UHGV virus genome: UHGV-0263858
From: a virus
Length of the DNA stretch: 28,280 nt
Reading direction: 5' to 3' (one strand)
Position 1 is the stretch's first letter, and each line of letters begins with the position of its first letter. The notes below the pieces were generated by a model. That model was not told where the DNA came from, ran no database searches, and worked only from the letters and a program-made list of their open reading frames with translations. Below are positions 25,835-26,878 of this stretch, one piece after another. The translations under genes were made by a program, and so were the position numbers.

Positions 25835-26878
25835 TTAATGGTTATTTTTTTCAAATGCAGTGTGATTAAATCTCTCTTCTTCCAGTTCCACGCCAATCGC
25901 ACAACGCCCCAGTGAAGGTGCAGCCTTTATCGTTGAGCCTGACCCCATAAAAATATCAGAGACCAAATCTCCTGGATGGCTACTGGCGGTAATTATCTGA
26001 CGTAACATATCCGCTGGTTTTTCACAGGGATGTTTGCCCGGATAATACTGCACAGGCTTGTACGTCCAGACATCCGTATAAGGAACAGCAGCCGATACGG
26101 AAAAATAACGCCGTAAAAATTTGTACTCTGCCAGCAGGCTGGCATATTGCCGGTTCAGTTCACTGTATGCGCTGACCAGCTGGTGATGTGGTTTTTCCAG
26201 TTCTCCGCGCTGATGCTTTTCTGCCGCTACACGTGCAAATAACACCTGCAGTTTTCTGTAATCACCCTCGTTCGGCAACTGCCACTGACTGGTACCAAAC
26301 CAGTGTGACGCCATGTTTTTCTTTCCGGTGGCTTCCGCTATCTGTTTCGATGTTACCCCCAGTGATTCACGCGCATCACGAAAGTAAGAAATCAGCGGGG
26401 CCATGACGTGCTGTTTTAGCTCGCGCCCCTTTGCCGCATAGCCGTCATTTTTGGGCTGGTATGGCCCCTGATAATGTTCTGCAAACAGAATGCGTTCTGT
26501 TGCCGGGAAATACGCCCGCAGGCTTTCCTTGTTGCATCCGTTCCAGCGTCCGGACGGCTTCGCCCAGATAATGTGGTTCAGCACATTAAAGCGCTGACGC
26601 ATCATGATTTCGATATCAGATGCCAGGCGATGACCACAGAACAGGTAGAGACTTCCGGCAGGTTTCAGTACCCGCCAGAATTGCGCCAGACACTGATCCA
26701 GCCATTTCAGGTAATCATCGTCGCCCTTCCACTGGTTATCCCAGCCCTCGGGCTTCACTTTAAAGTATGGCGGATCTGTGACTATCAGATCGACAGAGTT
26801 TTCCGGTAAGGTCTGGATAAATTCCAGGCAATCAGCGTTGATTAACTCACAACTGGATATTTTTACAGTATTAGCCAT
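25835..26878 (-). CDS. DNA methyltransferase (N6-adenine or N4-cytosine; DPPY motif IV N-terminal, FxGSGST motif I C-terminal, beta-class order)
   Basis: 347 aa. Contains DLIVTDPPYF near the N-terminus and DIFMGSGSTIKAA near the C-terminus; the HxxxEKP motif (HPCEKP) is typical of this MTase group. Confidence 0.85.
   Translation of the reverse strand: MANTVKISSCELINADCLEFIQTLPENSVDLIVTDPPYFKVKPEGWDNQWKGDDDYLKWLDQCLAQFWRVLKPAGSLYLFCGHRLASDIEIMMRQRFNVLNHIIWAKPSGRWNGCNKESLRAYFPATERILFAEHYQGPYQPKNDGYAAKGRELKQHVMAPLISYFRDARESLGVTSKQIAEATGKKNMASHWFGTSQWQLPNEGDYRKLQVLFARVAAEKHQRGELEKPHHQLVSAYSELNRQYASLLAEYKFLRRYFSVSAAVPYTDVWTYKPVQYYPGKHPCEKPADMLRQIITASSHPGDLVSDIFMGSGSTIKAAPSLGRCAIGVELEEERFNHTAFEKNNH

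Follow-up and report, generated by a model that had tools for sequence, protein, structure and literature searches.

The virus genome UHGV-0263858, the whole 28,280-nucleotide (nt) stretch of which is referred to here as the window, encodes on its minus strand (25835..26878) a 347-amino-acid DNA methyltransferase that is a new allele of an already characterised family, the M.EcoGII family, in its usual prophage position, and not a new orphan enzyme. Judging from its relatives and its setting, we consider it probable, at roughly 0.77, that the gene specifies an intact M.EcoGII-family enzyme that is expressed late in dependence on the antiterminator Q, methylates progeny DNA irrespective of sequence, and confers broad protection against restriction. 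The gene was identified as one for a beta-class N6-adenine DNA methyltransferase by open reading frame (ORF) calling and by Pfam, PHROG, and BLASTP searches. A sole ORF spans exactly these coordinates, is uninterrupted, and begins with an ATG whose assignment is unambiguous because an in-frame TGA lies two codons 5′ of it. The product matched Pfam PF01555 (N6_N4_Mtase) over residues 29-339 far above chance (E = 2.3e-43; 149.2 bits against a cutoff of 26.7), the match being split by an insertion of ~90 amino acids at the target-recognition domain, and PHROG methyltransferase families were matched at E = 1e-108. Catalytic motif IV (DPPY, residues 35-38; 26765..26776, minus strand) was read from the translation within TDPPYF (residues 34-39) and is invariant in 33 family members, as are F310, G312, S313, G314, and S315 of the S-adenosylmethionine (AdoMet)-binding motif I (FMGSGST, residues 310-316; 25931..25951, minus strand), which was read in the same way. 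The target-recognition domain, a helical region with a helix-turn-helix (residues 160-237; 26168..26401, minus strand), was numbered from the AlphaFold model of M.EcoGII (PMC11551740). The resulting order of motif IV, target-recognition domain, and motif I is that of the beta class. An earlier, sequence-only reading of this DNA had proposed a beta-class DPPY methyltransferase at 25835-26878 without giving its strand, and the ORF, the motif order, and the PF01555 match bear that assignment out. Our own AlphaFold model of the protein predicted helices at residues 146-255 and was weak (pLDDT 62) because the 33-sequence alignment was too shallow, all of its members being at least 75% identical. 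A sequence search of the PDB returned no structure of M.EcoGII; its matches were the catalytic cores of unrelated beta-class enzymes, at E values of 1e-25 to 1e-16 and over residues ~8-113 and 269-340 only.

By BLASTP, the protein was identical to M.EcoGII at 289 of 344 positions (84%; E = 0) over its whole length and with no large gaps, a figure that is approximate, within a few residues, given that the reference (GenBank EGT69837.1) was machine-read from the PDF of Table S1 of PMC11551740 and has a few obvious reading errors. That reference was 94% identical to the enzyme of phage 1720a-02 and thus behaved as a normal family member; the exact M.EcoGII sequence was found in no phage record and was not a cluster representative. 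Broken down by region, the identity to M.EcoGII was highest in the N-terminal core (96%), followed by the target-recognition domain (81%) and the C-terminal core (70%). The closest relatives in phage records were L24 of phiP27 (91%) and the "DNA methylase" of Stx2 phages (1720a-02 and Stx2a/2c/2d phages; 83-85%, with 83% for 1720a-02), and two reconstructed enzymes, Anc291 and SUPREM (Anc284), were 85% (86% in the target-recognition domain) and 71% identical, respectively. M.EcoGII is a 349-amino-acid beta-class enzyme from a prophage of E. coli O104:H4 that methylates adenine in any context in double-stranded DNA, single-stranded DNA, and RNA (PMC5778455). It was placed by Murray et al. (2018; PMC5778455) in "a very large family" that includes a close relative, the 1720a-02 enzyme, and we counted 2916 clusters of homologues at E values of 1e-20 or better across Enterobacterales. 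All of the reconstructed ancestors methylate both DNA and RNA, with no discernible motif for M.EcoGII, Anc291, or SUPREM, and M.PflMI, the closest enzyme whose site specificity is confirmed, is 27% identical to M.EcoGII (PMC11551740). With 84-85% identity to M.EcoGII and Anc291, as against only 27% between M.PflMI and M.EcoGII, the window protein lies, by pairwise identities, well within the portion of the family shown by experiment to be non-specific. Family membership also sharpens the N6A/N4C assignment of the sequence-only reading, which was right as to an amino-methyltransferase, in that N6-adenine and not N4-cytosine is indicated. With M.EcoGII and its paralogue M.EcoGI, from prophages of E. 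coli O104:H4 C227-11, the protein shares its family and nearly its length (347 against 349 residues), and with M.EcoGII also the beta-class motif order, a homologous target-recognition domain, carriage by a prophage, and the lack of a restriction endonuclease partner. Of the residues that differ from M.EcoGII (16%), most are found in the linker, in the target-recognition domain, and in a C-terminal patch of recombinant origin, and two substitutions adjoining motif I are unique to the window allele. In terms of annotation, a vague "site-specific DNA-methyltransferase" or "orphan methylase" becomes an M.EcoGII-type non-specific adenine methylase.

The gene was found to be 100% identical to a "DNA-methyltransferase" gene (WP_097450103.1) in prophages of the goat strains STEC005 and STEC719, both E. 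coli that make Shiga toxin (STEC). Of 5426 complete E. coli genomes, 1903 had homologues with at least 80% nucleotide identity, frequently as multiple copies, and this particular allele was confined to three goat isolates from one province. Among phage records the best match was the Stx2e phage phiP27 (L24), followed by many Stx2a/c/d phages and 1720a-02. In STEC005 a single strand carries, in order, the genes for the Q antiterminator, an ORF6N protein, an OB-fold protein, and a 65-amino-acid ORF, then the methylase, tRNAs, TerB, DUF3927, two holins, an endolysin, the terminase, the portal, and the capsid. The order in phiP27 (Q, GIY-YIG, L23, L24, tRNAs, stx2e, holins) has the same frame, and the arrangement of this late operon is already in the literature (PMC8456039, PMC3491183). 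phiP27 and the Stx2 phages share with the window a module of winged-helix ORF, 150-nt spacer, methylase, and tRNAs between Q and the lysis genes; they differ in having ileZ/argN/argO-type tRNAs and stx, where this prophage has Thr-Tyr-Gly tRNAs, TerB, and DUF3927. In distant phages of Providencia, Yersinia, Vibrio, and Aeromonas, too, the methylase gene immediately precedes the genes for lysis or the terminase. Its place in the lambdoid late operon is thus a standard one, the operon here being that of a phiP27-like prophage in a Shiga-toxin E. coli lineage; this location agrees with the earlier description of the methylase as phage-borne, and the prophage is an stx-less relative of the Stx phages.

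This setting suggests how the enzyme would be controlled and used. Terminator-like hairpins at 27378-27351 and 27042-27025 separate the upstream cargo genes from the methylase, and no sigma-70-like promoter was found in the 150-nt spacer upstream of it, so transcription should depend on Q-modified RNA polymerase. In a lysogen, transcripts from the upstream cargo genes would stop at the hairpin at 27042-27015, and a structured leader, described below, would occlude the stretch immediately 5′ of the start codon, leaving the methylase silent. Upon induction, Q-modified polymerase would read through from pR′, which lies beyond the end of the window, and the enzyme made late would methylate adenines in any sequence context in replicating, concatemeric phage DNA before packaging. 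Packaged genomes would then enter the next host already protected against many Type I, II, and III restriction systems that are sensitive to adenine methylation. The tRNA genes downstream would be cargo in the same moron slot and not functional partners. An anti-restriction role has been proposed for M.EcoGII (PMC5778455) and compared with that of Mu Mom in a review (PMC12707154); such a role had also been named as probable in the sequence-only reading, and we retain it on the strength of family and late-operon context. The same reading had offered a function in regulation as the other possibility, for which no support was found, the gene lying behind a terminator in a Q-dependent late operon and not at a site expected of a constitutive epigenetic regulator. 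It had further proposed that the target motif be sought in the methylomes of strains with and without the element, and that the lack of an attributable motif be taken as refutation. This check is invalid because M.EcoGI and M.EcoGII are silent in the lysogen and yield no motif (PMC5778455); a lysogen methylome without an attributable motif is the expected outcome whether or not the enzyme functions. DNA from induced virions is instead the place to look.

Several points weigh against this reading, apart from the approximate nature of the identity to M.EcoGII. The non-specificity of this allele is extrapolated from relatives at 84-85% identity. For the family as a whole, an anti-restriction role in real infection has been argued for, and we found no direct demonstration of it. 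Plasmids heavily methylated by M.EcoGII transform E. coli very poorly (PMC5778455), from which full methylation itself may be costly. Lastly, A307S and F309I, just before motif I, were absent from all of the 120 cluster representatives; R301H, L/M321P, and R326C, in the same diverged last 49 codons, are also unusual, so that substitutions in this C-terminal patch could have altered the activity of the enzyme.

The last of these points leads to the alternative that survives best, namely that this is an impaired or decaying allele in a defective prophage, with an intact ORF and an enzyme inactivated or weakened near the AdoMet motif. The intact gene shows purifying selection: its ratio of nonsynonymous to synonymous polymorphism (pN/pS) against phiP27 L24 is 0.16 over the whole gene and 0.02 when only the N-terminal core is counted. 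Relative to the allele of strain STEC313, only two differences were found in the first 896 nt, against 36 from nt 897 to the stop codon, many of them synonymous. These belong to a mosaic segment (25640-25982) that is sharply bounded, diverges by ~24% from the otherwise near-identical STEC313 allele, and takes in the last 49 methylase codons, the intergenic region, and the 5′ half of tRNA-Thr, to whose anticodon stem it brings a C29:A41 mismatch. In favor of impairment, the two substitutions absent from all 120 representatives and the three others (R301H, proline 321, R326C) fall within the same 50 residues; pN/pS reaches 0.34 in this C-terminal segment; the allele is restricted to the three goat isolates of one province; and the neighboring tRNA-Thr and tRNA-Gly have one stem mismatch each. 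Against it, the changes are confined to the segment at 25640-25982, which by its sequence is a recombinant patch and not decay, since sharp bounds and many synonymous differences point to import from a diverged functional allele. In addition, nothing has changed at the motif I residues D308, F310, G312, S313, G314, and S315, the substitutions that are present are conservative ones, there is no frameshift or stop, and the rest of the late region of the prophage is complete. We therefore regard an impaired allele as unlikely.

Somewhat less probable still is a sequence-specific orphan methyltransferase that would mark phage or host DNA at a defined motif and serve an epigenetic or regulatory purpose, in the manner of Dam or CcrM. 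The RefSeq name of many homologues, "site-specific DNA-methyltransferase," would agree with this, as would a target-recognition domain of normal size with a helix-turn-helix and weak NCBIfam matches to CcrM and to PRK11524 (YhdJ). Those matches, however, score far under their cutoffs (73 bits against 830 and 111 against 292, respectively) and cover only the shared catalytic core. The Dam family is excluded by motif order, FxGxG being N-terminal and DPPY C-terminal in its members and the opposite order being found here, and by the absence of MethyltransfD12, PF01555 being the only Pfam match. Moreover, the target-recognition domain is 81-86% identical to those of non-specific enzymes, whereas the nearest specific relative stands at 27%, and the gene sits in a late operon behind a terminator and belongs to a family that is silent in lysogens. 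With CcrM, M.RsrI, M.MboIIA, and enzymes of the M.BceJIV type, all of the beta class and structurally solved, the protein has in common a Rossmann core with DPPY and FxGxG; their central 150 residues are dissimilar, and they are sequence-specific and not phage late genes.

A third proposal, that the relevant substrate is RNA, either the co-transcribed phage tRNAs or late mRNAs, would explain why the methylase adjoins tRNA genes. As the sequence-only reading had noted, the gene lies just upstream of a tRNA cluster. Both are on the same strand, and the first tRNA starts 166 nt past the stop codon. The cluster (25309..25668, minus strand; ARAGORN and Rfam) consists of tRNA-Thr(UGU) at 25668-25593, tRNA-Tyr(GUA) at 25584-25500, and tRNA-Gly(UCC) at 25383-25309, and occupies a variable slot. 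M.EcoGII is active on RNA in vitro (PMC5778455), and tRNA genes were found no more than 1.2 kb downstream of the methylase in 58 of 73 close relatives from IMG/VR (86-96% amino acid identity). The sets themselves differ, however, comprising Met/Ile-Arg-Arg (24 relatives), Met-Arg (13), Gly (10), Thr-Gly (9), and Met-Lys-Lys-Gly (2), with none in the remaining 15, and no tRNAs were found downstream of the methylase in the more distant phages examined. Because the sets vary or are absent, the adjacency reflects a shared insertion hotspot, and the tRNAs were rejected as functional partners of the methylase. Activity on RNA is also ~100-fold below that on DNA (PMC11551740, Table S3), and an RNA substrate accordingly seems very improbable to us.

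That the gene is the modification half of a restriction-modification system with an endonuclease nearby can practically be dismissed: a GIY-YIG nuclease gene does lie two genes upstream of the methylase in phiP27 and STEC313, but a non-specific methylase cannot define a cognate site, and no nuclease other than RusA was found in the window and its STEC005 extension. Pfam, PADLOC, and RefSeq annotation likewise identified no restriction endonuclease among the neighbors, so that the pairing expected of a Type II system is missing here, and the earlier statement that no restriction gene is adjacent also holds for the STEC005 prophage beyond the window. The GIY-YIG gene was ruled out as a restriction partner by the variability of its slot. 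The region between Q and the winged-helix ORF (27396-28118 and past the end of the window, L001 13562-15096 in STEC005; also L005, L006, and L007) is a variable cargo hotspot, holding OB-fold and ORF6N genes here and the GIY-YIG nuclease gene in phiP27 and STEC313. In E24377A it carries genes for a Ser/Thr kinase and a PP2C phosphatase, and in PSJ-22 hypothetical genes that run along the opposite strand. All these genes are possibly defense or counter-defense morons.

The conserved partner of the methylase is the ORF upstream of it and not the tRNA cluster. This ORF (27029..27226, minus strand) encodes a 65-amino-acid, stand-alone winged-helix protein that matched phrog_331 at E = 1e-37 and was modeled by AlphaFold with a pLDDT of 91; the phrog_331 annotation reads "TrmB family regulator." All 74 close relatives whose sequence reaches far enough upstream carry this ORF ~151 nt upstream of the methylase, as do phages of Providencia, Klebsiella, and Yersinia in which the methylase is only ~60% identical. 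The model has a winged helix-turn-helix topology and a TM score of ~0.8 to the DNA-binding domains of MarR, OhrR, and IclR. The protein could regulate the methylase or, speculatively, might be a sensor of methylated DNA. A hairpin with a U-run resembling an intrinsic terminator was located by a terminator scan between this ORF and the leader (27015..27042, minus strand), and equivalent hairpins with compensatory changes were observed in mEp460 and in Klebsiella and Yersinia phages.

The spacer between the two genes proved to be well conserved, with 98-100% identity over 150 nt among E. coli relatives whose methylase coding sequences are only 85-93% identical. From its fold, a covariance model, and its conservation, we delimited within it a structured 5′ leader RNA of ~132 nt (26879..27010, minus strand) that comprises helices P1-P4 and abuts the methylase start codon. 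Its fold has a z-score of -3.7, and none of 200 shuffled sequences folded as well. The blocks that are invariant between the window and Providencia, Klebsiella, and Yersinia phages are AAUGGGCG, CCCAU/CCCGU, AAGGCCCA, GAGCCUAUCAAAAAAGG, and UGAUCYAUG; the hairpins between them differ wholly in sequence and keep their complementarity. P1 pairs AUGGGC with GYCCRU, P2 is a 14-bp hairpin, P3 pairs AGGC with GCCU and has an additional inner hairpin, and P4 pairs GGUCA-AAGC with GCUU-UGAUC, its 3′ strand covering positions -6 to -1 relative to the start codon. RNAalifold applied to plain MAFFT alignments failed, as the hairpin arms were out of register, and a covariance model built from 11 sequences and the structure of the window fold was used instead. 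This model detected the leader in 75 of 92 non-redundant loci (methylase identity 51-96%), with one match per locus, always on the sense strand and immediately upstream of the methylase, or, at six loci, upstream of a com-methylase pair. In an alignment of 76 distinct leader sequences, 83.8% of cells were paired, compared with 70.7% in shuffles, and double-sided changes occurred in 40 of the 45 pairs. The covariation score of 0.379, which is to be read with the caveat that the alignment is model-fitted, compared with 0.170 for shuffles (none of 500 reached the observed value) and with at most 0.117 for slid partners. Since G-U pairs are frequent, the structure exists on the sense strand only, which identifies it as RNA.

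When one genome per species was searched (185,579 species) with a degenerate pattern of the invariant blocks, 61 matches were obtained, 52 of which are followed, at a distance of exactly 18 nt, by the start of an M.EcoGII-family gene; seven of the nine exceptions came from unrelated phyla, which equals the estimated chance level. The leader hence almost always stands before a gene of the M.EcoGII family, in a range from E. coli to phages of Vibrio and Aeromonas, and is usually preceded by the 65-amino-acid winged-helix ORF. An Rfam 15 scan at gathering thresholds detected only the three tRNAs and no leader family, and a permissive scan of 26800-27300 gave only noise (E = 9.9). Literature searches found no description of the leader; the prophage small RNAs that they did find, AsxR, AgvB, StxS, and HnrS, are located elsewhere. 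Taken together, the winged-helix ORF, the terminator-like hairpin, and the leader appear to form an undescribed module.

With respect to function, the region from -20 to +3 around the start codon was less accessible with the native leader than with shuffled leaders (mean unpaired probability 0.48 against 0.54), a modest difference that is consistent, being seen in 48 of 63 sequences (Wilcoxon p = 7e-6; mononucleotide shuffles). We think that the simplest reading is a structure that inhibits translation and has to be opened, the candidate openers being the winged-helix protein, Com in those phages that have it, or a small molecule. The invariant UGGGC is complementary either to the proximal CCCAU, as in P1, or to a distal GCCCA, which is invariant as well and hence gives no covariation signal; such an alternative pairing would suit a switch. 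We give about even odds to the leader being an undescribed cis-regulatory element that acts as a translational switch, operated by a protein or a ligand, and keeps the methylase off until late lytic growth. If so, it would explain the silence of M.EcoGI and M.EcoGII in lysogens and would define a new class of phage RNA motif. M.EcoGII is toxic or deleterious upon expression (PMC5778455, PMC12707154) and is widely used for chromatin footprinting and RNA labeling, and the literature describes both its regulation in nature and its role there as unknown; the leader and its winged-helix partner offer a handle on how phages silence a toxic enzyme and are perhaps useful for its expression.

The nearest analogy to such an arrangement is com-mom of phage Mu, which likewise appears as a late DNA-adenine modifier that is toxic if mis-expressed, gives broad anti-restriction, and is controlled post-transcriptionally by an upstream small gene and by mRNA structure at the translation start. 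The systems differ in that Mom is an unrelated enzyme that makes N6-carbamoylmethyl-adenine, and in that the window has a winged-helix ORF in place of Com: the 65-amino-acid ORF showed no match to Com (PF10122), and the leader covariance model found nothing in Mu. The analogy is reinforced by Aeromonas phage PhAER-1 (L092 2278-2514) and Vibrio phage ST2-1pr (L094 2277-2465), in which a Com zinc ribbon (PF10122; 26.2 bits in Aeromonas and 34.5 bits in Vibrio, cutoff 22.9) is encoded directly upstream of the methylase homologue. In both phages the leader motif precedes com, giving the order leader, com, methylase. Hia5, Hin1523, and Nma1821, alpha-class enzymes of Mu-like prophages, combine promiscuous N6-adenine methylation with a late, mom-like position; they have the opposite motif order and share no detectable ancestry with it beyond the catalytic fold, all according to the account in PMC5778455, which cites Drozdz et al. 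(2012) for these enzymes.

The tRNA cluster is itself mosaic. Relative to STEC005, the window has a 206-bp insertion at 25386-25591, and the layout Thr-8 nt-Tyr-116 nt-Gly is that of the chromosomal thrU-tyrU-glyT operon. The sequence is of prophage type to the middle of tRNA-Thr, 100% chromosomal through tyrU, the spacer, and the first bases of glyT, and then again of prophage type. At the acceptor stem of tRNA-Gly this produces a C6:A67 mismatch, where the STEC005 prophage has a compensated U6:A67 and the chromosome C6:G67. Neither the 5426 complete E. coli genomes nor the 73 relatives from IMG/VR included a single instance of this arrangement. The 206-bp patch is either a gene conversion or a short-read assembly chimera formed via shared tRNA k-mers, and represents accordingly a clean example of tRNA exchange between host and prophage or an assembly error of relevance to curators. 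A promoter-like site (TTGAAA-16-TATTAT; 10 of 12 matches) was observed at 25730-25757 on the minus strand, ~60 nt upstream of tRNA-Thr, and the cluster may be expressed from a promoter of its own, independently of the late transcript.

Two further features of the prophage were observed at a distance from the methylase. The stx slot is occupied by a TerB-family gene (phrog_632, "tellurite resistance") at 24317-24814, together with the adjacent DUF3927 ORF (L001 10540-11114 in STEC005). A region of low GC content (0.38) at 1312-2052 holds a lone plus-strand gene, which encodes a DUF4875 protein with an N-terminal zinc ribbon and, lying beyond the tail-fiber end of the prophage, is probably cargo or a gene of a flanking island.

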